Virus record (IMG/VR): IMGVR_UViG_3300034073_002120
Strand: one strand, 5' to 3'
DNA: 64,000 nucleotides
Source: a virus
Taxonomy: Duplodnaviria > Caudoviricetes
Both the position numbers and the translations under genes were made by a program. Positions 19,999 to 50,064 of this stretch are shown piece after piece. Position 1 is the first letter of the stretch, and each line of letters starts with the position of its first letter. The notes under the pieces are model-generated. The model worked only from the letters and a program-made list of their open reading frames with translations, did no database searches and had not been told where the DNA came from.

Positions 19999-21729
19999 CT
20001 ATTTAATTTTTTTCTTAACGATATAATTTCCTAATACTAATGTATCCATTTCACAATCTAAAAAAGTTTCAATTGCATCCTTTGGTGAATTTACAATTGT
20101 TTTATCTTTTAAATTGAATGATGTGTTTAGGACAATCGGGTATCCATTATCTCTTTCTAATTGATTTAATAATGAATACATTCTTTTATGTTGTCTATTA
20201 TTTAAGGTTTGAATTCTTGCAGAACCATCTACGTGAGTAATTGCCGGTAAATTATCTATATGTTCTGAATTTACTTTTACCACTTGATTCATATAGGGAA
20301 CTAATAGTTTGTAATCAAAATATTTTAATCTATCCTCTTCTTTTACGATTGGAGCAAATGGTCTAAACCCTTCTCTTTTTTTGATTACTCTATTTACCCT
20401 ACTTTTCATTTGAGGGTCTCTTGGGTTAGCAAGTATAGAACGATTACCGAGTGCTCGAGAACCAAATTCCATTCTACCTTCGTACCAACCAATAACATTT
20501 CCATCTGTAATTTCCTTAGAAATAATTGGAATAAGTTCGGAGTGATTTTTGTATTCATACCATACATCGTTTGATTGTTTATCTAATTCTTCTTTAATTT
20601 CATCATTTGAATGCCATGGGCCTAAGTATGGATTCGTATTATCAACTCTACCAGCATTTTCAGTATGAGTATAATAATATTCTAAAGCACATCCAATTGC
20701 AGAACCGGCATCAGATGGTGCAGGTGGAATCCATAATTGTTTATATGGAGATTCTTTTGTTATTTTTCCGTTTGCAGTTCCATTATATGCACACCCACCA
20801 CTTAAACACAAACTATATGATGGATTAGTTGCAAACATTTTATTTATTAAACGGAAAAAGAAATATTCATATTGTGATTGAATTGTTGCTGCTAAATCCT
20901 TATGATGTTGTTCTATCTTATCTTCTGGTAATCGATTTGGAATACCTAATAATAATCCTAATTTTTCATTAAACATAGAATTGTTTGAATAATCATATGT
21001 GAAATAATCCATATTGATTTCAAACCCACCATCTTCGGTTTCTTTAATAAGTTCTTTAAAATGTTTTGTATAAACGTTCGGATTACCATATGGTGCAAGA
21101 CCCATTACCTTATACTCACCCTCATTTGGTTTAAATCCTAAGAATGCAGTAAATGCAGAATAAATCATTCCCAACGAATGTGGAAATTTAATATTCTGAA
21201 TTTTTGTGATTTTATTATTTTCTGCAAATGCTAAAACTGTGGTTTCCCATTCCCCAACACCATCTACTGAAATGATTGCTGAACGGTCAAATGGAGATGT
21301 GTAATAAGAATACGCAATGTGAGATAAATGATGGTCTCCGTATGATAAAATTATTTTATCGTTTGTGATTTCATAAATCTTACGTTCCGTTTCTTTATAT
21401 TTTTGTTTATTTTCTTTTAGAATAGCATTACGTTTGAAGTATTGTAATAACCCACCTCTCTTAGTGGTTTCTTCGATGCGTTCTAACTTTGTTGTTGGGT
21501 TTTCATAAAACGAAACTACCGATACATCCGCACCGGTAATTTTGAATTCGTTATATAACCAATTTATTGCATTAGTGGGAAAAGAAGAATCATGTTTAAT
21601 TCCCGTAAATCTTTCTTCTTCTACTGCTCCTAAAACTTTTCCATCTTTTAATAAACATGCTGCAGAATCATGATATCCACATGCTATTCCTAAAATATAT
21701 TTATTCTTCATCATAATCTTCATCACCAC
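19999..21729 (-). CDS. Carbamoyltransferase (NodU/CmcH family)
   Basis: LGIACGYHDSAAC, EEERFTGIKHD, HHLSH, VDGVGE, GEYKVMGLAPYG, EFGSRALGNRSIL, RPFAP, LNTSFN. Confidence 0.92.
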   Translation of the reverse strand: MVMKIMMKNKYILGIACGYHDSAACLLKDGKVLGAVEEERFTGIKHDSSFPTNAINWLYNEFKITGADVSVVSFYENPTTKLERIEETTKRGGLLQYFKRNAILKENKQKYKETERKIYEITNDKIILSYGDHHLSHIAYSYYTSPFDRSAIISVDGVGEWETTVLAFAENNKITKIQNIKFPHSLGMIYSAFTAFLGFKPNEGEYKVMGLAPYGNPNVYTKHFKELIKETEDGGFEINMDYFTYDYSNNSMFNEKLGLLLGIPNRLPEDKIEQHHKDLAATIQSQYEYFFFRLINKMFATNPSYSLCLSGGCAYNGTANGKITKESPYKQLWIPPAPSDAGSAIGCALEYYYTHTENAGRVDNTNPYLGPWHSNDEIKEELDKQSNDVWYEYKNHSELIPIISKEITDGNVIGWYEGRMEFGSRALGNRSILANPRDPQMKSRVNRVIKKREGFRPFAPIVKEEDRLKYFDYKLLVPYMNQVVKVNSEHIDNLPAITHVDGSARIQTLNNRQHKRMYSLLNQLERDNGYPIVLNTSFNLKDKTIVNSPKDAIETFLDCEMDTLVLGNYIVKKKIK

Positions 21730-22985: not shown

Positions 22986-23208
22986 TGATTAAATCTTCAA
23001 AGGTTTTACGCTCTTCATCGGTTTCGATAAAGGCTTTATTTATAGTTTCGTGATGATAGCCTAAAGCCGATGCCATTCTAATACATATCGTTTTGTATTC
23101 AAAAATTGTCATATCATCCGGCACTGTTAGTTCTATATTCGATGCCTCTCTATAATCATCTGCATCGATAGTAAATGTAAATTTAGCCATATTATACAAT
23201 CTCTGCAC
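22960..23208 (-). CDS. Hypothetical protein
   Basis: 82-aa ORF, likely start MAKFTF. Confidence 0.55.
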   Translation of the reverse strand: MQRLYNMAKFTFTIDADDYREASNIELTVPDDMTIFEYKTICIRMASALGYHHETINKAFIETDEERKTFEDLINELRKETI

Positions 23209-23809
23209 CTAACTCTAAGAATGGTTGTGCTTTTTTATATTTCATAAATTCGGTTTTCCCATCTGGTAATTTAACCATAACCATTTCATTTCTACCATAA
23301 GTTTTAGGAGCAATGTATGTAGTTGTATATCTACGTTCTGGGTTTGTAATAAGAATACCATCTAAGTGGTCGATTTCATGTTGTGCACATACACACTCCA
23401 TTAAACCAGCATCACCAAAGAATTCATCTGCATCTTTCCAATCGTTGAATTGATTATCTGCTTTAAATTCTACAACACCTAAGTTGTCGGTTTCTACTAA
23501 AATTCGTTTTGAACGAACTGTTTTAACTGGACTTTTTAATGTCTTATCGATTGATAAACATTGCTCTACATAGGCAACAGCATCTTCTGAGCGTTCTATG
23601 ATTGTTGGGTTGATTAAAACTAACGGCTCGATTACCTTAATTATACATGCACGAACATCCAAACCTAATTGATTAGCAGATAATCCAATACCACCGTGTT
23701 TTTCTAATTCAGTAGTAAGGGTTTCAGTAATCTTTTGAATTTCTTCAGCAGATAATTTTGAAGGTTTAATCGGTTTAGATAGTTTAAGTTTGTCTTTTAC
23801 AATTTGCAT
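23192..23809 (-). CDS. def: Peptide deformylase with C-terminal extension
   Basis: GIGLSANQLG, EQCLS, QHEIDHLDGIL. Confidence 0.9.
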   Translation of the reverse strand: MQIVKDKLKLSKPIKPSKLSAEEIQKITETLTTELEKHGGIGLSANQLGLDVRACIIKVIEPLVLINPTIIERSEDAVAYVEQCLSIDKTLKSPVKTVRSKRILVETDNLGVVEFKADNQFNDWKDADEFFGDAGLMECVCAQHEIDHLDGILITNPERRYTTTYIAPKTYGRNEMVMVKLPDGKTEFMKYKKAQPFLELGAEIV

Positions 23810-24011: not shown

Positions 24012-24040
24012 AAAATATTTATTATTTGGTTATTGTTATG

Positions 24041-24073
24041 TAAAGATACGAAAATATTTTCATAATTCCAAAT
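24041..24073 (-). promoter_or_regulatory. Bacteroidota-type early promoter
   Basis: ATTTGGAAT...TTCGTATCTTTA, 33-bp span. Confidence 0.75.
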
Positions 24074-25030
24074 TTATTTCCAATTAAAATTATTACCCAT
24101 ATGTCCCCATTTGGATGTTTCTGCGTAAGATATATTTCGTAAATCTAAAAAATCAATAATTCCATTTGGTGATAAGTCATATCCTTGTACCTCATACAAT
24201 CGAAGACCGGTTTCAACATTTATACCACTATCATTTCCTTTTATTCTTGCTTGAATAGGTTGTGTTTGGTTATTAGAATAACTTAATTCCACTAATGCGT
24301 ATTGTAATCCATATTGTTTCAAAGAATCAACAGCTATTCTTCTAGCCATATATCCTGCACATCTATCTAATTTAGTAGCATCTTTTCCACTATACGAACC
24401 ACCACCTAACGGAATTCTGGGACCATAATTATCAATTACATTTTGTTTACCTGATGCACCTACTCCATTTATCAACCCACCATTAGACCAATCACCATTT
24501 GAATTACAATATAATTTATTCAGATGAAAATTTGTAGTATCAAAATATTCTTTTATAATTGTTTCCAATTCTAATGTGGTAGTATTTTCAAACGATGCCA
24601 CAACATCTACCCAATCTCCATTTATTGTGATTTGAGTTTTACCTTCAAACGGAAATTGTGTATAAATAAATTTATTTAATTCACGAGTATAATGATATTC
24701 AAAAGGTAAGTAAGTTTCAGTCTCTTTGGTTGCGTAACCTATCGATATTCCAAATTTATTTATATGAGAAATTTTATTAATATTCTTTAATACAATATTA
24801 ACGTTTTCTATATTAGAAATGTTATAAACAATTTCAATTATTTCTGAATCAGATAAATGTCCATCACTTGCAACTTCTCCAATAATATTTAAAACACCAA
24901 ATCCACCACTCACTTGAATATTACATTGCGTGTACGGGTCTTGTTCTAAATATTTATCAAATATTGTGTCAGATATAATATCACACAATTTATCTGGATG
25001 TTTAGGTGATATGAATTCTGATGTTCTCAT
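24074..25030 (-). CDS. metK: S-adenosylmethionine synthetase homolog with degenerate active site
   Basis: HPDKLCD, GYATKET, GKTQIT, GGGSYSGKDATKLDR; GAGDQG motif absent. Confidence 0.8.
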   Translation of the reverse strand: MRTSEFISPKHPDKLCDIISDTIFDKYLEQDPYTQCNIQVSGGFGVLNIIGEVASDGHLSDSEIIEIVYNISNIENVNIVLKNINKISHINKFGISIGYATKETETYLPFEYHYTRELNKFIYTQFPFEGKTQITINGDWVDVVASFENTTTLELETIIKEYFDTTNFHLNKLYCNSNGDWSNGGLINGVGASGKQNVIDNYGPRIPLGGGSYSGKDATKLDRCAGYMARRIAVDSLKQYGLQYALVELSYSNNQTQPIQARIKGNDSGINVETGLRLYEVQGYDLSPNGIIDFLDLRNISYAETSKWGHMGNNFNWK

Positions 25031-25272
25031 TTAAATTTATTTAACGTTTTTTCGTTAGTTTTTGTTTTCGTTTTCTTTGCCTCTTTATTTTGTTTTTCTA
25101 TAACTTTCATTCTAGCAAAATAGGCTGGTTTCCATTTATACTCTACTGATATTGGACCATTTGGAAATTTCTTTTTATCATATTTCCAAATTGATATAGA
25201 TTCATCGTCTTCGTAGGTATATTCAAATTTGGTAGGTTTATCCTTCATCGAAGGTTCTGGTCTCTTTGCCAT
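25027..25272 (-). CDS. Hypothetical protein
   Basis: 81-aa ORF, ATGA overlap. Confidence 0.55.
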   Translation of the reverse strand: MAKRPEPSMKDKPTKFEYTYEDDESISIWKYDKKKFPNGPISVEYKWKPAYFARMKVIEKQNKEAKKTKTKTNEKTLNKFK

Positions 25273-25280: not shown

Positions 25281-26456
25281 TTAAAATGAAAAAAATTTAT
25301 TTATTGTTTCCTTATCAACTCTACTCTCCTTTCGCATCTCATCAATTGGTTTTAGTAATTCATCATATCCATCTATTGGTTCACCAACATACTCATGACA
25401 ATATGATGCTCGTTGATACATTGTCTTATACACCTCTGAATGGTCATTATTATCGTTTCTAATCTTTCCGTTAAATAAAGTAGGTTTCCAACTTTCGGTA
25501 TGAATATTTCGATAAATACCCAACGCAGGATTGATAGTTTTAGTGTAATACTTTGCATGCATATTTTTAAGAATACCACCACTCCATTCAGATATTTTAC
25601 TACCAATACTCATTCCTTGATAATCTGGATGAACTACGATTCTACTTTCTCTGAATACTTTGAATCCACCATTCTTACCCAAATGTCTTCCAATTACATT
25701 TATTGCTACAGGTTTATCGTTCCATTCAAATAGAAGATAGATGTAGGTTTTGTTTGCGTTTTGTGTTAGATAATGATGTTCTTTGAAGAAGTCCCAAGCT
25801 TCAGGTTCAACCCTACTAACTGATAAAGTGATTTCCGGTCTCCCTTGCCGAAGATAGTCAGGTCTTTCGAACCCGCCTCCTTTTGATGGTGAATATATCC
25901 AATCCGGCATTATCCACTCCATAATATCAAAGTGACAGGATGCTAAGATAATCTTTTTTCCTTCCCTACGAATGTATTTTTGTAATGCGAAACTCATTGC
26001 CTTTGCAACATCTCTATCAACAACCGATGTGTATTCATCAATTAAAATAGTATCACCATCTTTTGCAGATGAAACTAAATATGCAAGATATGCACGATAT
26101 TGTTCTCCATTACTTAATAAACGAAACGGTCTTAACCAAGTGGGAACTGATGATAATCCTATCGATGTTAGGACTCTTGTTGCCTCTTCTGGTTCTAACC
26201 AATCAAAATTAGATATAAGTGGTTTATCTTCATCAAACTTAACATCTTTACTACCACCCAATTCTTTTAATATAGTTGATTTACCACTACCACTTCCGCC
26301 ATATATGACACCAATATTCCAATCAAACGAATTTAATCCATCTAAATTCATAGGAATTGTAACTTGTGTTTCTTCTCTATTTTGTATATCAAACGCATTA
26401 TACACATATTCGGTGTATTTATCGTTTTGTATTTTAGATGTAAGTGTGATATTCAT
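25281..26456 (-). CDS. ABC-type ATPase fused to GNAT acetyltransferase (COG2401-like)
   Basis: GGSGSGKST, LSNGE, IDEYTSVVDR, then SRIVVHPDYQGMSIG. Confidence 0.85.
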   Translation of the reverse strand: MNITLTSKIQNDKYTEYVYNAFDIQNREETQVTIPMNLDGLNSFDWNIGVIYGGSGSGKSTILKELGGSKDVKFDEDKPLISNFDWLEPEEATRVLTSIGLSSVPTWLRPFRLLSNGEQYRAYLAYLVSSAKDGDTILIDEYTSVVDRDVAKAMSFALQKYIRREGKKIILASCHFDIMEWIMPDWIYSPSKGGGFERPDYLRQGRPEITLSVSRVEPEAWDFFKEHHYLTQNANKTYIYLLFEWNDKPVAINVIGRHLGKNGGFKVFRESRIVVHPDYQGMSIGSKISEWSGGILKNMHAKYYTKTINPALGIYRNIHTESWKPTLFNGKIRNDNNDHSEVYKTMYQRASYCHEYVGEPIDGYDELLKPIDEMRKESRVDKETINKFFSF

Positions 26457-26457: not shown

Positions 26458-27684
26458 TTAGTTACTTAGGGGTGCTTTAATTTTTGGATGTGAGGTATAT
26501 CCAACTAATTCAAAACAATCTGGTCTATAACTCATAATCTTTTCATCAAATGTTTTAGGACCTAAATGTTCTTTTACTTTGTGATGTAAATACCAATTTC
26601 GTTCGGTGATATTTACTGATGGTAATTCATAAGGTTCTCTTGTTCGTTTAGGTACTCCTGCCGAATCGAAATAGACCCCTTTAGCATAATCAGATTGTTC
26701 ATCAATATTATCACAAACATCACGATTCGGCTTATGATTTTCAAACCACCAATGCATTCGTTCTTCCAAAGTTAATTCTCTACCAATTTGTTCTTTAGCT
26801 TGTTCAATATGGTTTGAATACAAATGAACATCACCTAAATTACCAATCAACTCATCAGGTATCATATTTACCTCCTTTGCAATAATTTCTAATAACAAAC
26901 CATATGATGCAATATTGAATGGTAATCCTAAAAATGTATCTACACTTCGTTGATTCCACATTAGGGAGATTGCTCTTTTAGGAACTGGATATAATTCATC
27001 AATTTCTTCGTGGTCACCTCTATGAAAATCAAAAGGTTCAAATACTTTATAAGTTTTAGACGCTAACTCCAATCGTTCCTCAATACTTAACTCTCTCGTA
27101 TAAACTTGAAATCCATAATGACAAGGTGGAAGAACCATTGACTCTAATGCACCAACATTCCAAGCACTAACCATCAATCTTCTACTATCGGGATTTGTTT
27201 TTAAATCATTGATTAGGTTTGCAATTTGGTCAATTGGATTTGGGTTTAAATCCCAATCCCATCCTCTCCATTGTTTACCATAAATTGGACCTAAATCACC
27301 CCAACGTTGGGCAAACTTTTCATCGGTTTTGATTTGTTGAATGAACTCCGATTGTGACCAAATAGCCTTTGAAGGTACATATGGTGGTTCATCTCTAAAA
27401 TTTATTTCATAATTTTTATATGCATCACCATCCCAAATGTGACAATCGTAATCTAATAGGAATTTGATGTTAGTATCTCCTCTTAAAAACCATAGGAGTT
27501 CGGCAACCATAACATTCCACGCCATTTTTTTTGTGGTTAATAATGGAAATCCCTCACTCATTTTATGACGAATCTGTCTACCAAAAACAGAAATAGTGCC
27601 AGTTCCGGTTCTATCTCCTTTTTCTACTCCATTATCTAATATGTCTTGTAATAATGCTTGATATGATTTATCTAAGTTGTTCAT
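26458..27684 (-). CDS. thyA: Thymidylate synthase with two insertions
   Basis: DRTGTGT, ELLWFLRG, PDSRRLMVSAWN, LPPCH, QRSVDTFLGLPFN. Confidence 0.95.
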   Translation of the reverse strand: MNNLDKSYQALLQDILDNGVEKGDRTGTGTISVFGRQIRHKMSEGFPLLTTKKMAWNVMVAELLWFLRGDTNIKFLLDYDCHIWDGDAYKNYEINFRDEPPYVPSKAIWSQSEFIQQIKTDEKFAQRWGDLGPIYGKQWRGWDWDLNPNPIDQIANLINDLKTNPDSRRLMVSAWNVGALESMVLPPCHYGFQVYTRELSIEERLELASKTYKVFEPFDFHRGDHEEIDELYPVPKRAISLMWNQRSVDTFLGLPFNIASYGLLLEIIAKEVNMIPDELIGNLGDVHLYSNHIEQAKEQIGRELTLEERMHWWFENHKPNRDVCDNIDEQSDYAKGVYFDSAGVPKRTREPYELPSVNITERNWYLHHKVKEHLGPKTFDEKIMSYRPDCFELVGYTSHPKIKAPLSN

Positions 27685-30159: not shown

Positions 30160-31059
30160 TTATTTAATAAAAGGTAATATTGCTAATTCTTTTGCTTTGG
30201 CCTCTACCATACAATCCACATCCATTCCGTATGTATTAGGAAGCGAGTTAATGTAAAGTGAATGTGCCTGTGGTTTTTCTTTTGGATTATTTTCGTGTAA
30301 CGCTTTTGATTCCGAATAATGAACGATGGGTTTAATACCATCTGGCCAAGTTGATACTGCAAGTTTCAATGCTTGTTCTTCGGATAAATCACCTGTACAA
30401 AATTGGTGGTGATGATAATCAAATACAATCGGAATACCGATTTGCTCATGTACATACATAAGGTCTTTAACTGAATACATAGATGCCTTATCATCATTCT
30501 CTATTGTTAATCGTTTTTGAACCGATTCAGAGAGTCTTTTATAGTTGGTGATAAATCTATCTAACGCAGATTTTTTATCTCCGTAAACACCATTACAGTG
30601 GATATTAATCTTATTGTAAGGAGTTAAATCTAATCCTAATAAATCAAATACTTTACCATGTAATTCTAAATCTTTAATAGTATTATCAACTACGTTTGGA
30701 TTTGGTGAAACTAATACGTTAAACGGACCGGGATGTGATGTAAGACGTAATCCATTATTCTTAGCATAAGTACCACAACCTTTAAGGATGTTTGAGATTT
30801 TAGTATAATCTGGCATATCTTCTACGTTGTATTCGGAAGCCCACGGAAACATATCTGATGAAATACGGAATACTTTAATATTCTTAGAAACATTCCATTT
30901 GATAATCTCAAATAAATCACGAGAGTTTTGTAGGGCTAATTCGGAGGCGTAAGAAATACCTTTCTGATGAAACGTTTTCTTAACCATACTACGATTGGTA
31001 GTAATTTTAGGAGATTGTTCTCCTAATGTCATATTGATACACGCGTAACCTAAATTCAT
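30160..31059 (-). CDS. uvsE: UV damage repair endonuclease
   Basis: LGYACIN, FRISSDMFPW, HPGPF, IENDD, FDYHHH, HYSES, EAKAKE. Confidence 0.92.
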   Translation of the reverse strand: MNLGYACINMTLGEQSPKITTNRSMVKKTFHQKGISYASELALQNSRDLFEIIKWNVSKNIKVFRISSDMFPWASEYNVEDMPDYTKISNILKGCGTYAKNNGLRLTSHPGPFNVLVSPNPNVVDNTIKDLELHGKVFDLLGLDLTPYNKINIHCNGVYGDKKSALDRFITNYKRLSESVQKRLTIENDDKASMYSVKDLMYVHEQIGIPIVFDYHHHQFCTGDLSEEQALKLAVSTWPDGIKPIVHYSESKALHENNPKEKPQAHSLYINSLPNTYGMDVDCMVEAKAKELAILPFIK

Positions 31060-31119: not shown

Positions 31120-31443
31120 TTATAAGGAAAAACTTTCCCCACAACCACAAGTTCTACTTGCATTTGGGTTTATAAATTGGAAACCTTTACCATTTAAGCC
31201 ATCCGAAAAGTCCAATTGTGTACCAACAAGATATAATAAAGATTTATTATCTACTAATATTTTTACACCCATATCTTCGATTAAAGTATCGTTAGGAAGT
31301 GGGTCAGTATCAAAAGAAAGGTCATATGATAATCCACTACATCCACCGCCCTTAACACCAACTCTTAAATAGGGAGTTTTAAAATCAGTTTCCCCAATTA
31401 GGGATTGAACTCTTTTTGCTGCAGTATCTGACACTGTAATCAT
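31120..31443 (-). CDS. iscA: A-type Fe-S carrier (IscA/SufA/HesB family)
   Basis: GGGCSGLSY, NPNASRTCGCGESF. Confidence 0.93.
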   Translation of the reverse strand: MITVSDTAAKRVQSLIGETDFKTPYLRVGVKGGGCSGLSYDLSFDTDPLPNDTLIEDMGVKILVDNKSLLYLVGTQLDFSDGLNGKGFQFINPNASRTCGCGESFSL

Positions 31444-32819: not shown

Positions 32820-33524
32820 ATGATAATTTACACAAACGGATGTTCACATACGGCAGGTCATTGTATGAAACGTGATAAAACGTGGCCAATGATTGTTATG
32901 AAAAGTATTATAGGTTCTCAAGCATATTCGACAAATATTGTACCATCTATTATTAAAAAAGATTCGCACGTATTATACAATCAAGCAATGCATGGTGCAG
33001 GAAATGATTATATATTCCATAAAAGTTTAGAAACTATTTTGGCATTGATACATAGTGGTAATAAACCAGATTATGTAATCATTCAGTGGTCTGGTCCAAA
33101 TCGTAGAATGCACTCTGATGAAGATGGTAAGTATGTATTTGTAAACCCGTGGGATAATTCACATTTAGGAGTAAAATTTGAACCTATGGGTAGTCAACAT
33201 ACATTACATTATATGTTTGCGTTACAAGAAGTTTTAAAAAAACATAATATAGAATATTGGTTTTTTAATTATATGGAATTGTCAAAATTGGTTAAAAAAT
33301 CAAATGTATATAATGAAATGGATTTAACAAGAATATTAGATTTTAATTCAAATATTACTATGTTTGATGGGTTAATAGATTTTTTTAAATTAAATGAAAT
33401 GAATTGTGATGTGGGTGGTCATCCAAATGAACTTGGTAATTATTTTATAGGTAAACATATCGTTGATAAACTTGGATATGATTGTATAGATTATTCTAAA
33501 TTTTACAATACACTATTCATATAA
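32820..33524 (+). CDS. SGNH/GDSL-fold hydrolase or acyltransferase
   Basis: YTNGCSHTAG, GAGND, GGHPNELGN; ends NTLFI. Confidence 0.6.
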   Translation: MIIYTNGCSHTAGHCMKRDKTWPMIVMKSIIGSQAYSTNIVPSIIKKDSHVLYNQAMHGAGNDYIFHKSLETILALIHSGNKPDYVIIQWSGPNRRMHSDEDGKYVFVNPWDNSHLGVKFEPMGSQHTLHYMFALQEVLKKHNIEYWFFNYMELSKLVKKSNVYNEMDLTRILDFNSNITMFDGLIDFFKLNEMNCDVGGHPNELGNYFIGKHIVDKLGYDCIDYSKFYNTLFI

Positions 33525-34078
33525 TGGATATTAAATTATTTGATAATCGAATATTAGCACCTGCTAAATGTGGTACTAGACATTTACGAAAAATATTTAA
33601 AGATAAACGTTTTGATGTAAATAGCGATAATCTTAAACAAATAACACATATTGTTATACGAAACCCATATGAACATTTTGAATCTGCAATTCATACTGAA
33701 TATGTAAATTTTAAAAACACCCATAATTCAATTCAAAATATAGAACATATACTTCGTGGTACTATAAATGAAAATGGAATAGGTCATTGGAATCCTAAAA
33801 CTTATAGATTTTTGTATTCTATTTTTATACAAAATCCATCAATACAAATTATTGAATTATCAGATTTATCTAATTTTTTAGTATCAGAAGGATATTCAAT
33901 TCCACATAACAAATCAGAATATGATTGGTCTGAATTTGGGTTTAACATATCTAAAGAATTCGTTTTATTAGAATTCAAAAATAAGTTTAAACAAGAATTT
34001 GAAATGGTAAACAAAAAATTAGAAATTGAAATGATTTATTATACAAAATTATTAAATATGAGTATAGAAATACAATAA
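33524..34078 (+). CDS. Sulfotransferase-like protein
   Basis: PAKCGT (5'-PSB-like) and IRNPYEHFES (3'-PB-like). Confidence 0.55.
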   Translation: MDIKLFDNRILAPAKCGTRHLRKIFKDKRFDVNSDNLKQITHIVIRNPYEHFESAIHTEYVNFKNTHNSIQNIEHILRGTINENGIGHWNPKTYRFLYSIFIQNPSIQIIELSDLSNFLVSEGYSIPHNKSEYDWSEFGFNISKEFVLLEFKNKFKQEFEMVNKKLEIEMIYYTKLLNMSIEIQ

Positions 34079-34122
34079 TAAAACAACCTAGTGGAGTATC
34101 ACCACCTTTTTTCAGTTTACAT

Positions 34123-34131
34123 ATATTTATA
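34123..34131 (+). promoter_or_regulatory. Putative late promoter ATATTTATA
   Basis: 20 nt upstream of the Hint-domain gene. Confidence 0.55.
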
Positions 34132-34151
34132 GAGAAGAAATACTAAGACAT

Positions 34152-36419
34152 ATGAAGGGAACATTTTTTTCAGCAGATTTTATTAAAGATACTACTGGCA
34201 ATTTAAGATTAATGGAAGTAAATACTGATACCGGTTGTGTACCAAATGGACTTTCTTTTTTAGATTACACAAATTTTATAGAAATACTATCTGCTTCAGC
34301 TATAACTGAATTACATACAATTCACAAAGAAATTCATACAGATATTGTAGCAGAATTATCACAAAGTATATTTTCAAACGCACCATTTATAATATCGTTT
34401 GATTCTACAATTGAGGAAGCTGGTACTATTTATCCAACTGCAATAACTGATAGTTCTACAAAATTTATCTTACGTTTTGCGTATGATGAAGCATCCATTT
34501 TTGATTCCGAATATGCTAAAAGTGTATTAGGACCATTACAATTATTTACAGAAAATAATGATACTGCATCAATTGTAGAATATTCGTTTTCATCATCCGT
34601 ACAAGGATTTGAATTTGATAATTTACCAAAAGATTTTAATACTACAAACATACCAGATGTGGCAGTTAAAGATACATCTGCAAATACAACACATCCAATA
34701 TCATTTTATAAGATTGGTAAATCATCTGAAACAACGGATGATAGATGGAGTGAATTCACTGGTTCATTATCCGATGATAAATTAATTATTAAATTTTACG
34801 AAGATGCTTCGGAAACAAAAGTAACATCGGTTCGTTCATTTAATATTATTTATGGTAGTAATTTAGATTTAATAAACGTTGGAAATTATACAACAGAAGG
34901 ATTATTTGTAAAACCAACATCAATTGAATACGATGATACACAAATAGCAAATGAGATTGATGTAAAACACTATTATGAATTAACAACAAATTATCCAAAA
35001 TTTACAAATGTTTATAATTGGGGTGGTATATTCGAAGAAGAAGAAATTATTAAAGCAGATGGTACTACCATATTGATTGGAAGTGCATCAGTTGGAGATG
35101 AATTTAAATCTTATTTTATAAATGGAGCACCTGATACCGATGTGGTTTCTACTTTTATGGCGTGGTCACATGCTGGTTCAGAATTACCATCTGGTTCATA
35201 TGCTACTAGTTCTGTTTTAATCAATAAAATAGAACAACCCCTTTTATACAATCTGGCATTTCATTTAACTATGGAAGATGGTTCTGAATTTAGAGCATCT
35301 GGTGGAGTTCATTTGTTAGTACATGATATTGATTTAAATTGTATTCGTTATGAATCAATAGCAAAATTAGATGAAACTAAACATCAGTTAATTAATTTAA
35401 CAGGTGGATTAATCAATATTGATTCAATTGTAATAGAAATATTAGATGGTGATTATAAAACATATATTATTGATATGGAGACATCTGATACTTATTTCTT
35501 ATCAAATGGAGAATTAAGTGTTAAGATTGTTACACATAACTGCTTCCCTGCTGGAACTAAAATTACTTTAGCAGATGGTACTCAAAAGAATATTGAAGAT
35601 TTATTATTAACTGATAAAATCTTAACATATAACGAATTTACAGGTGAAAAAACAGAAGGTGTTATTGGGAATATCGTAAAGAAAAAAGAACATCTATTAA
35701 TCAGACACAAAACTGATGATGGTAATGAAGTTAAATCTACTGCATTACATAAGTTCTATGTTAAAGGTAAAGGATGGATTGCTGCACAAGATATTACATT
35801 AAATGATATTCTAATTAATAGAAATGGCAATGAAACTATTGTAACTGAAAAGGAAACGATTGTTGGTGAGGTTGAGGTTTATCATATTTTAGATGTTAAA
35901 GATAATCACACATATTATGCTGAAAACTTATTAGTTCATAACTTTAAATATAGTGGTGGTTCTTGCTTTGTTGCTGGAACTAAGGTAGTTATGGGAGATG
36001 GTTCTCAAAAGAATATTGAAGATGTAGTAATTGGTGATGAGGTACTTTCATTTAATGAATCAACTTTACAAAATGAAGTTAAAAAAGTAATTGGTTTAAA
36101 AACTCCAATTCACAACGATTTAGTTAAATACGAATTTGCAAATCAAACTTCAATAGTATGTACGTTTGACCATCCATTCTATGTTGGTGATTTAGAATTG
36201 GCATCTTATACTCCATTCTTAACAAACAAACGTTACGAATTAGATAAAGAAGTTAAACAAATCAAAACTGGTGATATGGTTTACTTATCAAATGGTGTAA
36301 GTAGAACTGCTATTAAAGATATAATAGAGTTAGATGAGAAAGATACTCAAACTTATATCATAACAGTCGAAGATAATCACAATTTTTACGCTAACCAAAT
36401 TTTAGTACATAATAAATAA
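34152..36419 (+). CDS. ATP-grasp-like N-terminal domain plus three tandem Hint (intein-like/BIL) domains
   Basis: ADFIKDTTGNLRLMEVNTDTG; Hint1 G292-N463, Hint2 C464-N597, Hint3 C605-N754. Confidence 0.8.
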   Translation: MKGTFFSADFIKDTTGNLRLMEVNTDTGCVPNGLSFLDYTNFIEILSASAITELHTIHKEIHTDIVAELSQSIFSNAPFIISFDSTIEEAGTIYPTAITDSSTKFILRFAYDEASIFDSEYAKSVLGPLQLFTENNDTASIVEYSFSSSVQGFEFDNLPKDFNTTNIPDVAVKDTSANTTHPISFYKIGKSSETTDDRWSEFTGSLSDDKLIIKFYEDASETKVTSVRSFNIIYGSNLDLINVGNYTTEGLFVKPTSIEYDDTQIANEIDVKHYYELTTNYPKFTNVYNWGGIFEEEEIIKADGTTILIGSASVGDEFKSYFINGAPDTDVVSTFMAWSHAGSELPSGSYATSSVLINKIEQPLLYNLAFHLTMEDGSEFRASGGVHLLVHDIDLNCIRYESIAKLDETKHQLINLTGGLINIDSIVIEILDGDYKTYIIDMETSDTYFLSNGELSVKIVTHNCFPAGTKITLADGTQKNIEDLLLTDKILTYNEFTGEKTEGVIGNIVKKKEHLLIRHKTDDGNEVKSTALHKFYVKGKGWIAAQDITLNDILINRNGNETIVTEKETIVGEVEVYHILDVKDNHTYYAENLLVHNFKYSGGSCFVAGTKVVMGDGSQKNIEDVVIGDEVLSFNESTLQNEVKKVIGLKTPIHNDLVKYEFANQTSIVCTFDHPFYVGDLELASYTPFLTNKRYELDKEVKQIKTGDMVYLSNGVSRTAIKDIIELDEKDTQTYIITVEDNHNFYANQILVHNK

Positions 36420-36429
36420 GGATTTCACT

Positions 36430-36567
36430 ATGGCACAAATATATAAAACATTTACTAAAAGTGATTTGGACAACAAACAAGTTGTAACAACTACACCAAC
36501 TATAAATCAACAAGTTAATGTCATTTTAACTAATTTTATCCAATACATTAAGGATAAACATATGTAA
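36430..36567 (+). CDS. 45-aa peptide
   Basis: MAQIYKTFTKSDLDNKQVVTTTPTINQQVNVILTNFIQYIKDKHM fills the gap between two genes. Confidence 0.6.
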   Translation: MAQIYKTFTKSDLDNKQVVTTTPTINQQVNVILTNFIQYIKDKHM

Positions 36568-36581
36568 TTAAACTTACTTAA

Positions 36582-37088
36582 ATGGTTATATTTTCTAAAG
36601 AAGAGTGTGAGTATATAAAGTCATTTTATTCATTATACGATGAAGTTGATGGTATGGATACTCACACTCTGAATGGCATTCAAATAAAATTCAGAAAAGG
36701 TAGTTCTGCCAAATTTGTAACAATTGATAATTCTGAACTAAAGAATTTTCTCTTACAAAAACTTACACCCTTAAAGGTAAAAAATATACCTACCATAAAA
36801 ATTATGAAATATGGTAAAGGTGGTAGTTTGGCTAAACATCAAGATTTTTCCAAATACGGAGTTGATATAATTTACAAAACTTTATTAGTTCAATTATCAG
36901 AATCATCTGATTATATAGGAGGTGATTTAATTGTAGAAAATACTCCGCAATCTAGAGTAATCGGTTCAATAACGTCTATATCACCTACTGCGGAACATGA
37001 AGTAACTATGTTAGAAGATGGTGAACGATATTCATTAGTTCTGTTTTTACATGAAAGTGATTTTGATATTTCAAAAAATATAATTTAA
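36582..37088 (+). CDS. 2OG-Fe(II) oxygenase
   Basis: HQD, GGDL, HEV...RYSLV; ends SKNII. Confidence 0.85.
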   Translation: MVIFSKEECEYIKSFYSLYDEVDGMDTHTLNGIQIKFRKGSSAKFVTIDNSELKNFLLQKLTPLKVKNIPTIKIMKYGKGGSLAKHQDFSKYGVDIIYKTLLVQLSESSDYIGGDLIVENTPQSRVIGSITSISPTAEHEVTMLEDGERYSLVLFLHESDFDISKNII

Positions 37089-37474
37089 TGTTTAAAAAAT
37101 ATAATTTTGAATCAAGAGGAATAGGAATTATTTCATCTACATCAATTACATCCAATACCTTTATTGGTAATTACTTTACAAAATCAGAAACTATATCGAC
37201 AGAAAGTAGACTCATTTACGAAGGATGGGTTGAAACTAACCCATTAGGTAGATATTTAAATCATAATAGAATTCCAAATTGTAATTTAGAATTAGATGGT
37301 GATGCTATTAAAATATATACTAATAGAGATATTAATCAATTTGAAGAATTAACTATAAATTATTTAGATATTATCAAAATAATAGAATTACCGATGCGAT
37401 TAATAAACAAATATGGAGTATTTGATTTTGATTATATTGAAGAAAAAGTAATTATAAAACAAAATTTAATATGA
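37088..37474 (+). CDS. SET-domain protein
   Basis: GRYLNHNRIPNC, RDINQFEELTINY; ends KQNLI. Confidence 0.8.
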   Translation: MFKKYNFESRGIGIISSTSITSNTFIGNYFTKSETISTESRLIYEGWVETNPLGRYLNHNRIPNCNLELDGDAIKIYTNRDINQFEELTINYLDIIKIIELPMRLINKYGVFDFDYIEEKVIIKQNLI

Positions 37475-38214
37475 AACTAATTTATAGTTACTCCACTAAA
37501 ATGGGTAATTACGATGATAATGATTGGATATTACTTTTATACAAAGGTGCAATTACTCGTTCAAAACAATTGGGATATACTATTAAATTATATGGTTGTG
37601 ATTTTACTTATCAAAAATTGAAGGATGTAGTAGATGAATATGTAGATATTACAAATGAAGAGTTTGTTCTTACTGATGATTTAAAATTATACATACATTC
37701 AAAAGAAGACTTAGATTGTGTTACAATCGATGGTGATATAATATTAGAATCTAAATTAAATTTGCCAACTAATTGTGATATGATATATGAAATAAAGGGA
37801 GTGGTTAAATCTAAAACACAAACTAAATTTCAAAGATATTTAAATATTTTTAAAGATTATGATATTACATCTAATATAGATTATTTTAACTATAATACAC
37901 TATACGCATGTAGTGTTGGTATTCTTAAATTCAATAATAAAGAAACAAAGGAATTATTTATATCCACTTATTATAAATTTAGAAAATACTTTATAGATAA
38001 TATTAAATCAGATAATCGTCTATTTAAAAAAGATGACCCTGCAATAATTGTATGTGAATATATGTTTGCATGTTTGTTAGAAGGCACCGAATATGTTGGT
38101 AAAGAATGTAATAATATAAATGATTATACTCATTATATGTCATTAACTAAATTTACACCTACCGCATGGAAACATGTTGATTCTATCTTAAATCCTACAA
38201 CTAAATTGTTATAA
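37471..38214 (+). CDS. GT-A-like nucleotidyl/glycosyltransferase-like protein
   Basis: TIDGDIIL DxD motif, YTHY; paralog of the next gene; ends TTKLL. Confidence 0.5.
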   Translation: MKLIYSYSTKMGNYDDNDWILLLYKGAITRSKQLGYTIKLYGCDFTYQKLKDVVDEYVDITNEEFVLTDDLKLYIHSKEDLDCVTIDGDIILESKLNLPTNCDMIYEIKGVVKSKTQTKFQRYLNIFKDYDITSNIDYFNYNTLYACSVGILKFNNKETKELFISTYYKFRKYFIDNIKSDNRLFKKDDPAIIVCEYMFACLLEGTEYVGKECNNINDYTHYMSLTKFTPTAWKHVDSILNPTTKLL

Positions 38215-38915
38215 TGAATTTAATATATACATTTGATAAAACTGTAAATACAGATTCACATAAAATAGATGTATTAAAATCGTATTATACGAATAGCATT
38301 AATTCTGCTAAACTATTAGGATATAAAACTGAATTATATTCTAATTGTGATTGGTTTGATGATTTAGTAGATATTAAACATATAATAACCGATGAATTTG
38401 TTTTTTGGGATGCATTCAAAACTATACCACTAAATAGAAATGATGATTATATATTAGTAGATGGTGATGTTATATTTCATAATAGATTACCAAAGTTAGA
38501 TGATTCAGTAGATGTATATTTTGATGGATGGGAGAGTTGGTTAAGTATTTATGATGATTGTGTAAATGAATTAGATGGGTTAGGTATATCGGATATAATA
38601 CCTGAATGGAAAGTCGAAAAACAAAGAGTTATGAACATAGGAACTCTTAAAATTAATAATAAAGAATTAAAAGAATTATATTTAGACAGATGGTTTAAAT
38701 TATATGAATTTTGTAAAGTTAGAAAAGATACTTTAAAAACATTTGATTTATGTTGTACCATAACATCTCAATATCTTTTAACGTTATTATCAAATCAATA
38801 TAATATTCATAATTTTTCGGATAGATTACGAGTACCAAATAGTTATTATACACATTATGTAGGTAAAGAGAAATATAATTTACCGATTCCGAAAATCAAT
38901 AAAACGCTGATATAG
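38214..38915 (+). CDS. GT-A-like nucleotidyl/glycosyltransferase-like protein
   Basis: LVDGDVIF DxD motif, MNIGTL, YTHYVG; ends NKTLI. Confidence 0.5.
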   Translation: MNLIYTFDKTVNTDSHKIDVLKSYYTNSINSAKLLGYKTELYSNCDWFDDLVDIKHIITDEFVFWDAFKTIPLNRNDDYILVDGDVIFHNRLPKLDDSVDVYFDGWESWLSIYDDCVNELDGLGISDIIPEWKVEKQRVMNIGTLKINNKELKELYLDRWFKLYEFCKVRKDTLKTFDLCCTITSQYLLTLLSNQYNIHNFSDRLRVPNSYYTHYVGKEKYNLPIPKINKTLI

Positions 38916-38917
38916 TT

Positions 38918-39334
38918 ATGATAAATTTAAAAGTAGCAACAAAGGTAGAAGTTAAAGAATCACCGATACATGGAATGGGTGTATTTGCTATTGAAGAAAT
39001 CAAAGCAGGTGAAGTGATTGAGGAATGTCATTTAATAACACTTCCATTTAAACCAGGCGAACAATCATTTTTTCTATATGATTATAAATTCAATTATCCG
39101 GCAGAAGGTAAGTTAGAAGAATATGTTTTACCATTAGGTAATGGGTGTATATATAATCATTCTGATACTAATAATGCATATTGGAGAAACCACCCACAAC
39201 ATAAGGCATTTCAGTTTGTTGCTATCAAAGATATAAAAGTAGGTGAAGAAATTTGTACTTATTATGGTGATGCTAATTATTGGAAATTAGTAGAAACATT
39301 TAAAACTAAAAATATCAAATTATCTATAATATGA
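38918..39334 (+). CDS. SET-domain protein-lysine methyltransferase
   Basis: SPIHGMGVFA, YNHSDTNNA, KDIKVGEEICTYY; ends KLSII. Confidence 0.9.
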   Translation: MINLKVATKVEVKESPIHGMGVFAIEEIKAGEVIEECHLITLPFKPGEQSFFLYDYKFNYPAEGKLEEYVLPLGNGCIYNHSDTNNAYWRNHPQHKAFQFVAIKDIKVGEEICTYYGDANYWKLVETFKTKNIKLSII

Positions 39335-40584
39335 AAATATATGTACACCACTATTATAGTAAAATACTTTTTTATAAATTAGCACATAATAGTAATAATA
39401 AATTTATTGAAGTTGATTTAAATACCAATATTGGTTCTGCATATTGTAATTATAATGGTGTAGATATTGAATTTTATTTTAATCCAGAAATAAATGATAA
39501 TACTGATGGGTTACATTTATTAGATTTTTTTTCAGCATTACTACAAAGATATACAGATTCTACCTATATGGAATTGAATATTGGTGATGTACAAGATACA
39601 CCAATAGTTAGTAAATTTGTAGAACTATTAGAAAATAAAAAAAATTGGATAATTACATTATTTAGAACTGAGCGTATTTTAACAAAAAGTGATTTAGATA
39701 CTACCATACACATAGATGAGTTAGAATCACAAATACAATTGTTAAAAAATCACAAAATAATATCTGATAATTTATTTATAAATGATAATATTAGATATAG
39801 ATTTCCAAACATTTATTTTGCATTTACAAATACAATATGGCAATGGAATGAAATAATTGGAATACGATGGTATTATGAATACAAACAAATATTTGAGAAA
39901 TTAAATTTTGATTATGATTTAATGTATTCAGTTCGTAATCATAAAAAATATAGATGTGATATATTAAAAGGTTTGGCTAAACTAAATAATAAAAAATTAT
40001 TATTACAAAGAACCAATTCAGCACCGGTAAGTAAATTTTATAACACATATGAAAATGAATTATCAGAAATAGATAATATTCATTTTAATTCAATTAATGG
40101 TACTACCGATTTTGAAAATATAACTTTAATACAATATCAAAGTGGATTGACTTGGGATTTATGGTTTAGAATGCTATCAAAAGCCAAAATTCAAATATTA
40201 GATGAAAGTTGGGCTCATTCTAAAGATGAATTTCAAAATCAATATTTTTCTGAAAAAACATTAGGATTAGTTCTTGCAAATATACCATTTGTATCTACTC
40301 ATTCATATCCATTAGAAATGTTACAAAAAGTATTAAACATTTCAGAACATCCGTTTTATAATGAAGCAAAATTATATAAAGGTAATGTAGATTTATTTGT
40401 ATCGTTTATTGATTCCTTTTTAAAAAATTTTGATGAGAACTATAAAAAAATAAAGGAATGGACAAATGAATGTCATATTGCGTTTGTTAAAAAAATAGAA
40501 TCGGAAAATACTATGTTAGATATGTTATTAGATGATTTTAAAACAGAAAATGATAAAATTAATTCAAATAAAAAGTTTTTGTAA
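39331..40584 (+). CDS. Putative glycosyltransferase-like protein (GT10-like FSEKT motif)
   Basis: QILDES...FSEKT...IPFV; ends NKKFL. Confidence 0.4.
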   Translation: MKIYVHHYYSKILFYKLAHNSNNKFIEVDLNTNIGSAYCNYNGVDIEFYFNPEINDNTDGLHLLDFFSALLQRYTDSTYMELNIGDVQDTPIVSKFVELLENKKNWIITLFRTERILTKSDLDTTIHIDELESQIQLLKNHKIISDNLFINDNIRYRFPNIYFAFTNTIWQWNEIIGIRWYYEYKQIFEKLNFDYDLMYSVRNHKKYRCDILKGLAKLNNKKLLLQRTNSAPVSKFYNTYENELSEIDNIHFNSINGTTDFENITLIQYQSGLTWDLWFRMLSKAKIQILDESWAHSKDEFQNQYFSEKTLGLVLANIPFVSTHSYPLEMLQKVLNISEHPFYNEAKLYKGNVDLFVSFIDSFLKNFDENYKKIKEWTNECHIAFVKKIESENTMLDMLLDDFKTENDKINSNKKFL

Positions 40585-41063
40585 TGAAATTATATAACGA
40601 TACTGAATTAAAATTTTTAAATTCATTTTGGGAAAATGTAGATTATCGAAAGTTTGATGATAGAAGTTATGAATTTGCTGTTATGATGAATAACGAGATG
40701 GATATAACTACTAAATTATTAGATTGGTTTGAAAATGAAAGTGGTGAAAAACTTATACATAAGAAATATAGTTTAATAATACACAAATATAATGTTGGTG
40801 ATTATTTCGATAAACACATAGATTCGGTTGAACGTAATTATAAAAATAGAGCATATGTTGTTGGGTTTCATATAAACGATGAATATGATGGTGGTGATTA
40901 TATATTATATAACCCAAACGAAATCATAGATAAAGGACCAGGCGTACCTTACTGTTTTAAATCAAATAGATTGCATGAAATAACAAAAATAACAAATGGT
41001 ATTAGAAAAAGTGCATTGATTTTTATCAATCACGAAGATTTAGTAAAAAAGAATTTATTATGA
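40584..41063 (+). CDS. 2OG-Fe(II) oxygenase
   Basis: HID, YDGGD, HEI...RKSA; ends KKNLL. Confidence 0.85.
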   Translation: MKLYNDTELKFLNSFWENVDYRKFDDRSYEFAVMMNNEMDITTKLLDWFENESGEKLIHKKYSLIIHKYNVGDYFDKHIDSVERNYKNRAYVVGFHINDEYDGGDYILYNPNEIIDKGPGVPYCFKSNRLHEITKITNGIRKSALIFINHEDLVKKNLL

Positions 41064-41539
41064 TAAATTTTGAATTAAATATTTCAGATTATAACCAAAT
41101 TGAAGAACTTAGTATATTAAGATATAATGAAGTATTATCCGATGATATTAAAAAACTAATATATTTTTTTAATGAAGAATATAAATGGGATGGTATGTTT
41201 ATATTTGATGATGTTCAAACTAGAATAAATAATGGTCATCATTTGTTTATTTTATATTATGGTAATAACGCAATTGGTTATGTGTTTTATGAACCAAAAG
41301 AGAATAACGAATTTTATTTATATAATTTGTATGTTACAAATTGTTACAAAAGACCAAATTATTCAGCACAATGGTTTGTAAATAAAACTATTGGAATGTT
41401 GCCAATACCTATTTCGAAAATATCATGTATATGTGAAGATTGGCATGTTGCAGCTCATAATGTATTTACTATAAATGGATTTGAAACAAAAAAAAAGAGT
41501 CACCAAACTGATGACTCTTTACAAAAAATGAGAGATTAA
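41060..41539 (+). CDS. GNAT-fold acetyltransferase-like protein
   Basis: AIGYVFY, YLYNLYV, WHVAAHNVFTINGF. Confidence 0.45.
   Translation: MINFELNISDYNQIEELSILRYNEVLSDDIKKLIYFFNEEYKWDGMFIFDDVQTRINNGHHLFILYYGNNAIGYVFYEPKENNEFYLYNLYVTNCYKRPNYSAQWFVNKTIGMLPIPISKISCICEDWHVAAHNVFTINGFETKKKSHQTDDSLQKMRD
41488..41520 (-). terminator. Intrinsic terminator for the sHSP transcript
   Basis: aaagagtca-tcagtttgg-tgactcttt plus T run. Confidence 0.75.
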
Positions 41540-41544: not shown

Positions 41545-41967
41545 CTACTTTACTTTTACTGAAATTTTCTTTTGTTTTGCTTCTGCTTTCTTTGGAATAG
41601 TAATCAATAAAATACCATTCTCTACTTCTGCAGATGTTTGTGTAATATCGTAATTAGATGAAATACGAATGTTGTGCTCTAATGTTGAAACCAAATTATT
41701 TTGGATTGAACCTTCGGAGTATAAACTTTCTGCCTTAATTTTTAATAAGTTTCCATCAACATCAATTGAAATATTTTCTTTTGGATGTCCTACCACCTGA
41801 AACGCTAATTCGTATGAATCATCATTCTGTTTAGTATATCCAACCGCAGTATCTCGTAATGTTGTTGATGTTTTCCAAGTAGGTAAATCCTTCTCAAATA
41901 AATCTAATAAGTGTCCTAAATTTGCTGTGTACATAATCTTTTCTTTTTTAGTTAAACAATACATCAT
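41545..41967 (-). CDS. Small heat-shock protein (Hsp20)
   Basis: Alpha-crystallin pattern, AEVENGILLITIPK. Confidence 0.88.
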   Translation of the reverse strand: MMYCLTKKEKIMYTANLGHLLDLFEKDLPTWKTSTTLRDTAVGYTKQNDDSYELAFQVVGHPKENISIDVDGNLLKIKAESLYSEGSIQNNLVSTLEHNIRISSNYDITQTSAEVENGILLITIPKKAEAKQKKISVKVK

Positions 41968-46160: not shown

Positions 46161-46597
46161 ATAAATAATTTATAATCGGTTTCACGTTCGTAGGCAATCG
46201 TTTCATATGGGTGATTACTATAATCATACCCCATTTTATAATATCGAGTCATCCAACTCGGTGATTGCAAATAATGTTGATATTCGTGGATTAGGGTTCT
46301 AACCAAATCTTCGGTATTTTTTATATTTTTCCAATATATTATCAATTCATTATTTAGGGAACAATACTCACCAATCAAATCTTTATCATCTGCATCGGAA
46401 TATGGTGAATCTTCAATTACCAACCAGGGGCTTTCCATTTGGAATTTAGATTCTCCATAATGGGTTATTATCTTATCAAAGTATTGGTTAATTAGGCGGG
46501 ATATATCTCTCTTATTCATATATGCTAATATACGAACATTTATTGGATTTTCCAAATAAAAAGGGTAGTTTTTCACTACCCTTTGATTATCAATCAC
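46157..46597 (-). CDS. Small HExxH metallopeptidase-like protein
   Basis: LIHEYQHYLQ...HPYE. Confidence 0.6.
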   Translation of the reverse strand: MIDNQRVVKNYPFYLENPINVRILAYMNKRDISRLINQYFDKIITHYGESKFQMESPWLVIEDSPYSDADDKDLIGEYCSLNNELIIYWKNIKNTEDLVRTLIHEYQHYLQSPSWMTRYYKMGYDYSNHPYETIAYERETDYKLFI

Positions 46598-47322
46598 TTA
46601 TGTTTTTTTTCTATTGTTTCGTTGAATTCGGTGTATGCATCTAATAAGGCATCTACCACAGGATGTCTATGATTGGTAAGTAAGGTTTGAGAATCCATAT
46701 CCTTAATTTTCCTTGCTGCTGATAAAAGGAATTTGAACCCAGAATCTTCTCTATATTTCAAATCCACTTGTTGTGTATCACCACAAATTACCATTTTACT
46801 ACGAATACCCAAACGAGATGTAATCATTTCCATTTGAGTGTTAGTGCAGTTTTGTGCTTCATCAACAATAATAAATGAATCTAAAAAGGTTCTACCTCTC
46901 ATAAACGCAAGAGGAACAATTTCAACTTGTCCACTTTCTAAAATCTTATCGATTTTTTCCTTATTATATAATTGGTAAAAATTAGAATATACCGGTTGCA
47001 TCCACGGCTCCATTTTCTCTCTCAAATCTCCTGGTAGGAAACCAATTTCTTCTTTACTAACTGTGGGGCGAGTAATTATGATTTTATTGATTTTCTTTTT
47101 GAATAACATATCAAGAGCAACCTGACATGCTAAAAGTGTTTTACCACTACCTGCTTTACCACTTAGGATAGTAATTGCATTATTGAGAATCTTTTCTTTC
47201 GCCTCTTTTTGTTCTTCGTTTAATTGTAACTGAAACTTAATTGGAGCCTTTGGTCTATTTGTTATTTCGTCTTTAATCTGGTCTGTCAATTGTTTGTGTT
47301 TTGTAGATTGATTCTCTGCCAT
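46594..47322 (-). CDS. phoH: PhoH-like ATPase
   Basis: GKAGSGKT, ITRP, IGFLPG, MRGRTF, DEAQN, GDTQQVD. Confidence 0.93.
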   Translation of the reverse strand: MAENQSTKHKQLTDQIKDEITNRPKAPIKFQLQLNEEQKEAKEKILNNAITILSGKAGSGKTLLACQVALDMLFKKKINKIIITRPTVSKEEIGFLPGDLREKMEPWMQPVYSNFYQLYNKEKIDKILESGQVEIVPLAFMRGRTFLDSFIIVDEAQNCTNTQMEMITSRLGIRSKMVICGDTQQVDLKYREDSGFKFLLSAARKIKDMDSQTLLTNHRHPVVDALLDAYTEFNETIEKKHK

Positions 47323-49026: not shown

Positions 49027-49103
49027 TGGTGGGCCAGATAGGAATCGAACCTATTACCTACTGATTATGAGTCAGTTGCTCTAACCGAATGAGCTACAAG
49101 CCC
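49027..49103 (-). tRNA. tRNA with CAT anticodon (probably Ile2/lysidine)
   Basis: GGGCTTG/TGGCCC acceptor, ACTGA-CTCATAA-TCAGT, encoded CCA. Confidence 0.9.
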
Positions 49104-49158
49104 TTAATCGTTTATATTAACGATAAAGTTGAATATCGTATGTTTCAACGATAAATAA

Positions 49159-49278
49159 GGTGCCGGTGGTAGGATTGGATACCTACACGATGTCCATTTC
49201 GGATACACCCCCTTACTAGTATTACAGGACGTCTAATAGTTTTATTCGAATTCAAACTATTCTTTCCGCCACACCGGC
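49159..49278 (-). ncRNA. tRNA-like RNA with hairpin inserted in D-loop and non-canonical anticodon and T loops
   Basis: Perfect GCCGGTG/CACCGGC acceptor, A73, long variable arm. Confidence 0.7.
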
Positions 49279-49283
49279 ATATG

Positions 49284-49357
49284 TGGAGATGATAGGAATC
49301 GAACCTACGACCCTCTGCGTGCAAGGCAGATGCTCTAGCCAACTGAGCTACATCCCC
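49284..49357 (-). tRNA. tRNA-Ala(TGC)
   Basis: Canonical cloverleaf, G3-U70. Confidence 0.95.
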
Positions 49358-49364
49358 AATATTG

Positions 49365-49449: not shown

Positions 49450-49454
49450 AAATT

Positions 49455-49982: not shown

Positions 49983-49983
49983 A

Positions 49984-50060: not shown

Positions 50061-50064
50061 GATT

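Follow-up and report, generated by a model that had tools for sequence, protein, structure and literature searches.

A compact MetK homologue of a jumbo phage with a degenerate active site, probably a pseudoenzyme maintained under selection

In phages, metK is routinely regarded as an auxiliary metabolic gene that raises the supply of S-adenosylmethionine (SAM), and compact phage MetKs, including those of Streptococcus prophages and of many metagenomic phages, are widely annotated as S-adenosylmethionine synthetases. The 64-kb window considered here (the whole stretch of phage DNA that was analysed) encodes a compact phage MetK derivative of 318 aa, with an intact reading frame (24074..25030, minus strand) and a degenerate active site. 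This raises the question of whether the protein still makes SAM and, if it does not, what the phage may keep it for.

The phage and the surroundings of the gene

The window belongs to a large phage of myovirus type; it encodes a baseplate wedge protein and an endolysin and has a GC content of about 30%. Among cultured phages, those of Bacteroidota are closest, namely Flavobacterium phage immuto for the thyA DNA and Cellulophaga and Bacteroides phages for the helicase. Related IMG/VR contigs reach 229-287 kb, and a 262-kb contig carries a protein that clusters at 90% identity with P0001, itself 99% identical to the MetK-like protein; the phage of the window is therefore a jumbo phage. Large tRNA arrays with a tmRNA are typical of jumbo phages with translational autonomy, and in the window 25 tRNA genes, for most of the amino acids, form such an array (49027-57439, minus strand), within which lies a tmRNA with its own tag peptide (56776-57147).

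The MetK-like gene sits between a helicase/ThyA module and a peptide deformylase/carbamoyltransferase module. The thymidylate synthase (26458-27684, minus strand) has 408 aa and carries insertions relative to the 298-364 aa versions of the relatives; on the other side lie the peptide deformylase, Pdf (23192-23809), and a NodU/CmcH-type carbamoyltransferase (19999-21729). Between the thymidylate synthase and the MetK-like gene there are two further ORFs on the minus strand. The first encodes a 391-aa protein in which an ABC-type ATPase is fused to a GNAT acetyltransferase (25281-26456, phrog_11143). It gave weak PADLOC hits to mad3 and mad8, beyond which PADLOC gave no hit. A linked modification pathway made of this fusion, ThyA and the carbamoyltransferase is unsupported, as the ATPase-GNAT gene comes and goes among close relatives independently of the MetK-like gene.

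The second ORF, of 81 aa (25027..25272), lies directly upstream, and its stop codon overlaps the start of the MetK-like gene (ATGA). Its dN/dS is 0.06-0.19. The product is a basic protein with an invariant SIWKYD...KFPNGP core, widespread in jumbo-phage contigs (139 IMG/VR matches) and with no match in Pfam, PHROG or NCBIfam. As a dedicated MetK partner it was ruled out: 78 of the 80 IMG/VR loci that encode it (L124-L203) have no MetK nearby. The 81-aa ORF is thus a conserved phage gene in its own right. A promoter and terminator scan performed no better than on shuffled sequence.

Elsewhere in the window we observed a UvdE UV endonuclease (30160-31059), an IscA-like Fe-S assembly protein (31120-31443), an Hsp20 (41545-41967) and a PhoH (46594-47322). 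Furthermore, a plus-strand island of lower GC content (32820-41539, 24-28%) interrupts the otherwise minus-strand region, and it includes a 755-aa protein with two Hint/intein-type modules (34152-36419) and two 2OG-Fe(II) oxygenase-like proteins (36582-37088 and 40584-41063).

Fold and active site

That the MetK-like protein is a true MetK homologue is certain from its sequence, and the predicted structure agrees with an intact fold. Among the Pfam domains, the N-terminal S-AdoMet_synt_N (PF00438, 52.6 bits) and the C-terminal S-AdoMet_synt_C (PF02773, 90.6 bits) both scored above the cut-off; the central domain of methionine adenosyltransferases (MATs), PF02772, remained below it (19.5 bits against a cut-off of 29) and is present in the AlphaFold2 model. 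The phrog_1569 profile matched residues 2-317 with E = 1.7e-45, a full-length family match. With E. coli MetK the protein shares 29% identity (E = 4e-36), and the solved MATs were matched at E values of about 1e-28 to 1e-32. The AlphaFold2 model, built with 122 homologues, had a mean pLDDT of 96.1 and a pTM of 0.93, and Foldseek aligned it to solved MATs with TM values of 0.82-0.86, in agreement with a three-domain MAT fold.

The active site was read with E. coli MetK (MG1655) as the numbering ruler, and residue calls were checked in alignments with 120 to 122 homologues. Twelve residues are conserved across 2,963 MATs, which in human numbering are H29, D31, E57, E70, Q113, K181, D258, R264, K265, K285, K289 and D291 (PMC7271947); the set used here, in E. 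coli numbering, is H14, D16, E42, E55, Q98, K165, D238, R244, K245, K265, K269 and D271. Seven of the twelve are kept, and five are replaced or lost (E42Q, Q98, D238G, R244K and K245Q). Like the bacterial enzyme, the phage protein has the HPDK motif (aa 11-14, 24989..25000, minus strand) with the equivalents of H14, D16 and K17, as well as E55, K165 and the Gly-rich phosphate-binding loop (aa 209-223, 24362..24406, minus strand) with K265, D266, K269, D271 and R272. The adenine-stacking aromatic residue at F230 is retained as W.

Unlike the bacterial enzyme, the phage protein is 66 residues shorter and its gating loop has been removed. The shortened region (aa 84-93, 24752..24781, minus strand) has lost Q98, S99, the GAGDQG motif and D118 (D118K); about 14 residues are missing relative to E. 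coli, and 8-9 relative to canonical compact phage MetKs. In the model the loop is replaced by a 10-residue connector, residues 81-90 forming the 10-residue block of lowest pLDDT (87), and the positions of this region are variable within the clade to which the protein belongs. The equivalent of E42, which contributes to the K+ site and forms half of an inter-subunit salt bridge with R244, is Q39 (24914..24916, minus strand), and this residue is invariant throughout the clade. The segment NGVGASGKQ (aa 188-196, 24443..24469, minus strand) carries the changes D238G, R244K and K245Q.

The first-pass annotation had described most of these changes from the letters of the sequence. The alignments agree with it on the retention of HPDK and GKD..K.DR, on the disappearance of the QSxDI/GAGDQG loop, on DAK becoming EGK (D163 is replaced by E and K165 is unchanged) and on GDCGLTGRK becoming NGVGASGKQ with loss of the Asp238 and Lys245 equivalents, to which the change at R244 is to be added. 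The proposed replacement of CET by CNI was placed two residues out of register, since AIET/CET aligns to NIQV; the loss of Glu42 that it implied stands.

The changes at these positions are not a matter of chance, as all 12 catalytic residues are present in 83 of the 120 nearest compact homologues, and K265 is unchanged in every sampled member of the family. All 27 sampled sequences lacking E42 also lack R244, which fits the known salt-bridge pair. The equivalog model for metK, TIGR01034, gave 152 bits, half of its cut-off of 309, compared with 274 bits for a canonical compact copy found in syntenic relatives and 667 bits for E. coli MetK. By catalytic residues, gating loop and equivalog score alike, the MetK-like protein does not pass as a functional methionine adenosyltransferase.

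Descent, selection and gene loss

Thousands of relatives are present in the protein database; the closest ones, encoded by metagenomes and phage contigs, are likewise compact MetKs (316-335 aa). The MetK-like protein forms a clade with P0001-P0009, L005 and L006, which are 65-99% identical and have their losses in common. In a maximum-likelihood tree obtained by a quick search, with sampling biased toward the nearest relatives of the protein, this clade was nested inside the canonical compact phage MetK family (SH-aLRT 92-100). Furthermore, a canonical compact MetK with all catalytic residues occupies the same slot between ThyA and Pdf in four syntenic relatives (L013/L094, L091, L092 and L093), the helicase of which is 77-85% identical to that of the window, so that the MetK-like gene is the positional orthologue of an apparently active enzyme. 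The gene therefore descends from a compact phage SAM synthetase that, in this group of jumbo phages, once stood at the same place between ThyA and Pdf. A surface motif near aa 260-275 was considered as a novelty of the clade and ruled out, the same motif being present in the canonical syntenic orthologue.

The MetK-like protein shares with the compact phage MetKs of phrog_1569 its length class, the trimmed loops, the W in place of F230 and the slot in related jumbo phages. All 12 catalytic residues are present in the canonical members, but not in its clade or in several sister clades. A tree in which all degenerate sequences were forced into one clade was rejected (AU p = 0.0004), and independent changes were counted at least five times for D118 and for Q98, at least four times for D238 and at least three times for K245 and for R244. 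Repeated independent loss at the same positions fits a situation in which any inactivating change is acceptable. Other compact phage MetK clades (P0032/L090, P0015-P0017, P0042-P0057, P0026 and P0060) have lost different catalytic sets independently of the clade studied here. For instance, P0032/L090 shows E42Q, the loss of Q98, R244G and K245Q; P0042-P0057 show E55N/K, D118N, the loss of K165, D238N and K269N; and the P0054-type clade keeps E42 and K245 and has lost K165, F230 and K269.

The gene has remained under purifying selection. Compared among three DNA sequences (the window against L005 and L006), its dN/dS was 0.17-0.31 at a dS of about 0.8-1.1, and the neighbouring genes ranged over 0.04-0.36 in the same comparison. 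All members of the clade are intact at 318-319 aa, down to 65% identity, with intact ORFs in at least 10 distinct clusters. To locate the erosion within the protein we used the 131 alignment columns with a conservation of 95% or more among canonical compact MetKs, 18 of them catalytic or ligand positions and 113 others. Unchanged and invariant in the clade were 4 of the 18 catalytic or ligand positions versus 71 of the 113 others (Fisher p = 0.0017). Erosion is thus concentrated on the catalytic positions and purifying selection acts on the rest, which is the sequence pattern of a pseudoenzyme and points to a loss of activity. The same selection has preserved the three-domain MAT fold, the phosphate loop and that face of the beta-sheet through which MATs dimerise.

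At the same time, the gene is often missing. Among the 13 IMG/VR relatives covering the slot it is present in two, and the other 11 have a gap of 67-71 bp instead, in which the 81-aa ORF joins the intergenic spacer directly (downstream junction and spacer at 24012..24079 of the window, minus strand). The contig L124 lacks the MetK-like gene and is 98.5-98.8% identical to the window in DNA on both flanks, its 81-aa, 63-aa and Pdf proteins being 100% identical; the missing segment corresponds exactly to positions 24080-25028 of the window, and AAAT microhomology flanks the junction. The thymidylate synthase of L124 is only 77% identical, amid flanking genes that match at 99-100%, which indicates a recombination mosaic. 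Neither of two relatives with a CheckV completeness of 100% (287 kb and 274 kb) has a MetK homologue in its genome. A second MetK copy with which the degenerate one might pair was looked for and not found within the window, and five related IMG/VR records have a single copy each. The MetK-like gene is thus an optional accessory cassette, dispensable to the phage. Its amino-acid identity is 81% to L005 and 66% to L006 and runs parallel to that of the flanking Pdf (96% and 69%, respectively), which suggests an old vertical presence with repeated recent losses.

Possible functions and significance

The MetK-like protein is probably a pseudoenzyme that no longer makes SAM at a useful rate, since several changes come together in it, any one of which is strongly deleterious in the MATs studied so far. 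In MATs, D258 forms hydrogen bonds with SAM, at the amino group and at the O3', and D258G, the same change as D238G of the phage protein, is a human loss-of-function allele with strongly reduced SAM formation. R264 forms an inter-subunit salt bridge with E57 and also touches the tripolyphosphate (PMC7271947); with R264H or R264A hardly any SAM is formed, and in the E. coli enzyme kcat drops more than 200-fold when the gating loop is mutated. The reading as a pseudo-enzyme, already put forward in the first-pass annotation, has gained evidence from the loss of five of the 12 residues, of D118 and of the loop, together with a core under purifying selection, and loss of activity would be the expected outcome. 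If so, the protein may work by binding instead of catalysis.

As for what would be bound, the leading mechanism, which we put forward tentatively and by analogy, is that of a poison or decoy subunit for canonical MetK. The active sites of MATs are built by both subunits of the dimer, at their interface, and a heterodimer of wild-type rat MAT with the R265H mutant (R264H in human numbering) makes no SAM (PMC7271947); a dead subunit pairing with canonical MetK is therefore the simplest mechanism. In this light the co-oligomerisation with host MetK proposed in the first-pass annotation, with a lowering of SAM, would be plausible. What this lineage has lost are the residues by which methionine is bound, the active site is closed and SAM is formed (the Q98/S99 loop, D118, D238, K245 and the E42-R244 pair). 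According to the model, the degenerate subunit would pair with the canonical MetK of the host or of a co-infecting phage. The hybrid active sites would be unable to form SAM, and the lowered SAM would weaken SAM-dependent host functions, such as restriction or BREX-type defence. The model would also fit the inactivation of different lineages in different ways.

Several observations weigh against the poison-subunit model. With an identity of 29% to bacterial MetK and several missing loops, hetero-oligomerisation would be uncertain, and both members of the central salt-bridge pair (E42 and R244) are altered. The SAM consumers that the phage itself encodes, two SET-domain proteins in the plus-strand island (37088-37474 and 38918-39334) and a B12-binding radical SAM enzyme (60367-62085), would be expected to suffer from depletion. 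Moreover, the frequent loss of the gene in near-identical phages means that its benefit is conditional at best.

A different kind of binding protein appears less likely, namely one that retains a ligand or a half-reaction: a tripolyphosphatase, an ATP or polyphosphate binder, or a sponge for SAM or a SAM-derived signal, with the triphosphate and adenosine half-site kept. The tripolyphosphatase activity of MATs does not depend on SAM formation, and neither D258G nor R264A nor mutation of the gating loop removes it (PMC6850014), and the sub-branch of the MetK-like protein retains all the Mg and triphosphate ligands (H14, D16, K165, K265, K269 and D271), along with D266 and the W at F230. The sister sub-branch (L006, P0006, P0007 and P0009), however, has D16N, K165T, D271E and K245E, with H14N in addition in P0007, which makes a phosphate chemistry conserved across the clade unlikely. 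Moreover, tight binding of SAM would hardly be expected after the loss of its contacts D238 and Q98.

That the protein is still a SAM synthetase, with an unusual and compensated active site, is in our view a slim prospect. The fold is intact, the Mg and phosphate ligands are present and R244K is a conservative change; human MAT2A with Q113A keeps 75% of its activity (PMC6850014), and the SAM-dependent enzymes of the phage would profit from SAM. Such a compensation would nevertheless have to accommodate E42Q, D118K, D238G and K245Q together with the loss of the gating loop, and the replaced positions vary in the clade with no fixed new configuration. The TIGR01034 score, well below that of the syntenic canonical copy, speaks against it as well.

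An adenosyltransferase acting with a new nucleophile or on a new nucleotide substrate is very improbable. The clustering of the losses on the methionine-binding half (D238, Q98/S99 and D118) and the new invariant residues Q39 and N37 on the active-site strand would suit it, but K245 and R244 are lost too, a conserved replacement pocket is lacking, and we found no linked pathway genes, the neighbours not being co-inherited with the MetK-like gene. The altered-substrate alternative of the first-pass annotation is likewise weakened by the variation of the replaced positions within the clade and by a sister branch that is missing Mg ligands. A functionless relic heading for deletion, which would fit the absence of the gene from most syntenic relatives and from the two complete genomes and its evolution faster than that of its neighbours (81% versus 91-96% amino-acid identity), is hardly credible given the low dN/dS at considerable dS, the intact length of all copies and the 71 non-catalytic positions still invariant.

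Considering all of the above, a former SAM synthetase that is under selection and acts as a poison or decoy subunit would be the best explanation as a whole, and we hold it with clear reservations. Like the human MAT1A R264H and rat R265H variants, the phage protein is altered at the R244 equivalent, and in addition at its partner (E57 in human, E42 in E. coli). The rat R265H subunit forms hybrids with the wild type that make no SAM and keep tripolyphosphatase activity (PMC7271947), and a phage heteromer is by analogy a candidate for the same behaviour. R264H/R265H is a single-residue disease allele of a cellular enzyme, whereas the phage gene is evolved and multiply substituted.

A phage precedent exists for interference with the same enzyme: the SAM lyase (SAMase) of phage T3 cleaves SAM and binds MetK as a foreign partner. 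The MetK-like protein is of unrelated fold, and SAM depletion is here only proposed. If the poison-subunit idea is true, the outcome would be the same as with the T3 enzyme: host MetK would make less SAM, and the phage would escape defences that depend on SAM. More speculatively, and again by analogy, Bacteroidota jumbo phages might repeatedly have converted their own compact SAM synthetase into a dead subunit that pairs with host MetK and shuts it down, which would be a new anti-defence strategy of enzymatic origin.

Neither phage MetKs with degenerate catalytic sites nor a MetK pseudoenzyme turned up in our searches of the literature. Nearly identical phages that either have or lack the gene, together with the syntenic relatives in which MetK is canonical, provide natural controls that make the question directly testable. 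Since catalytic residues have been lost while selection persists, the annotation as a SAM-boosting auxiliary metabolic gene is probably wrong for a sizeable, degenerate branch of the compact family. If MetK poisoning or mimicry is true, the gene would represent a new counter-defence or host-takeover factor derived from a housekeeping enzyme.
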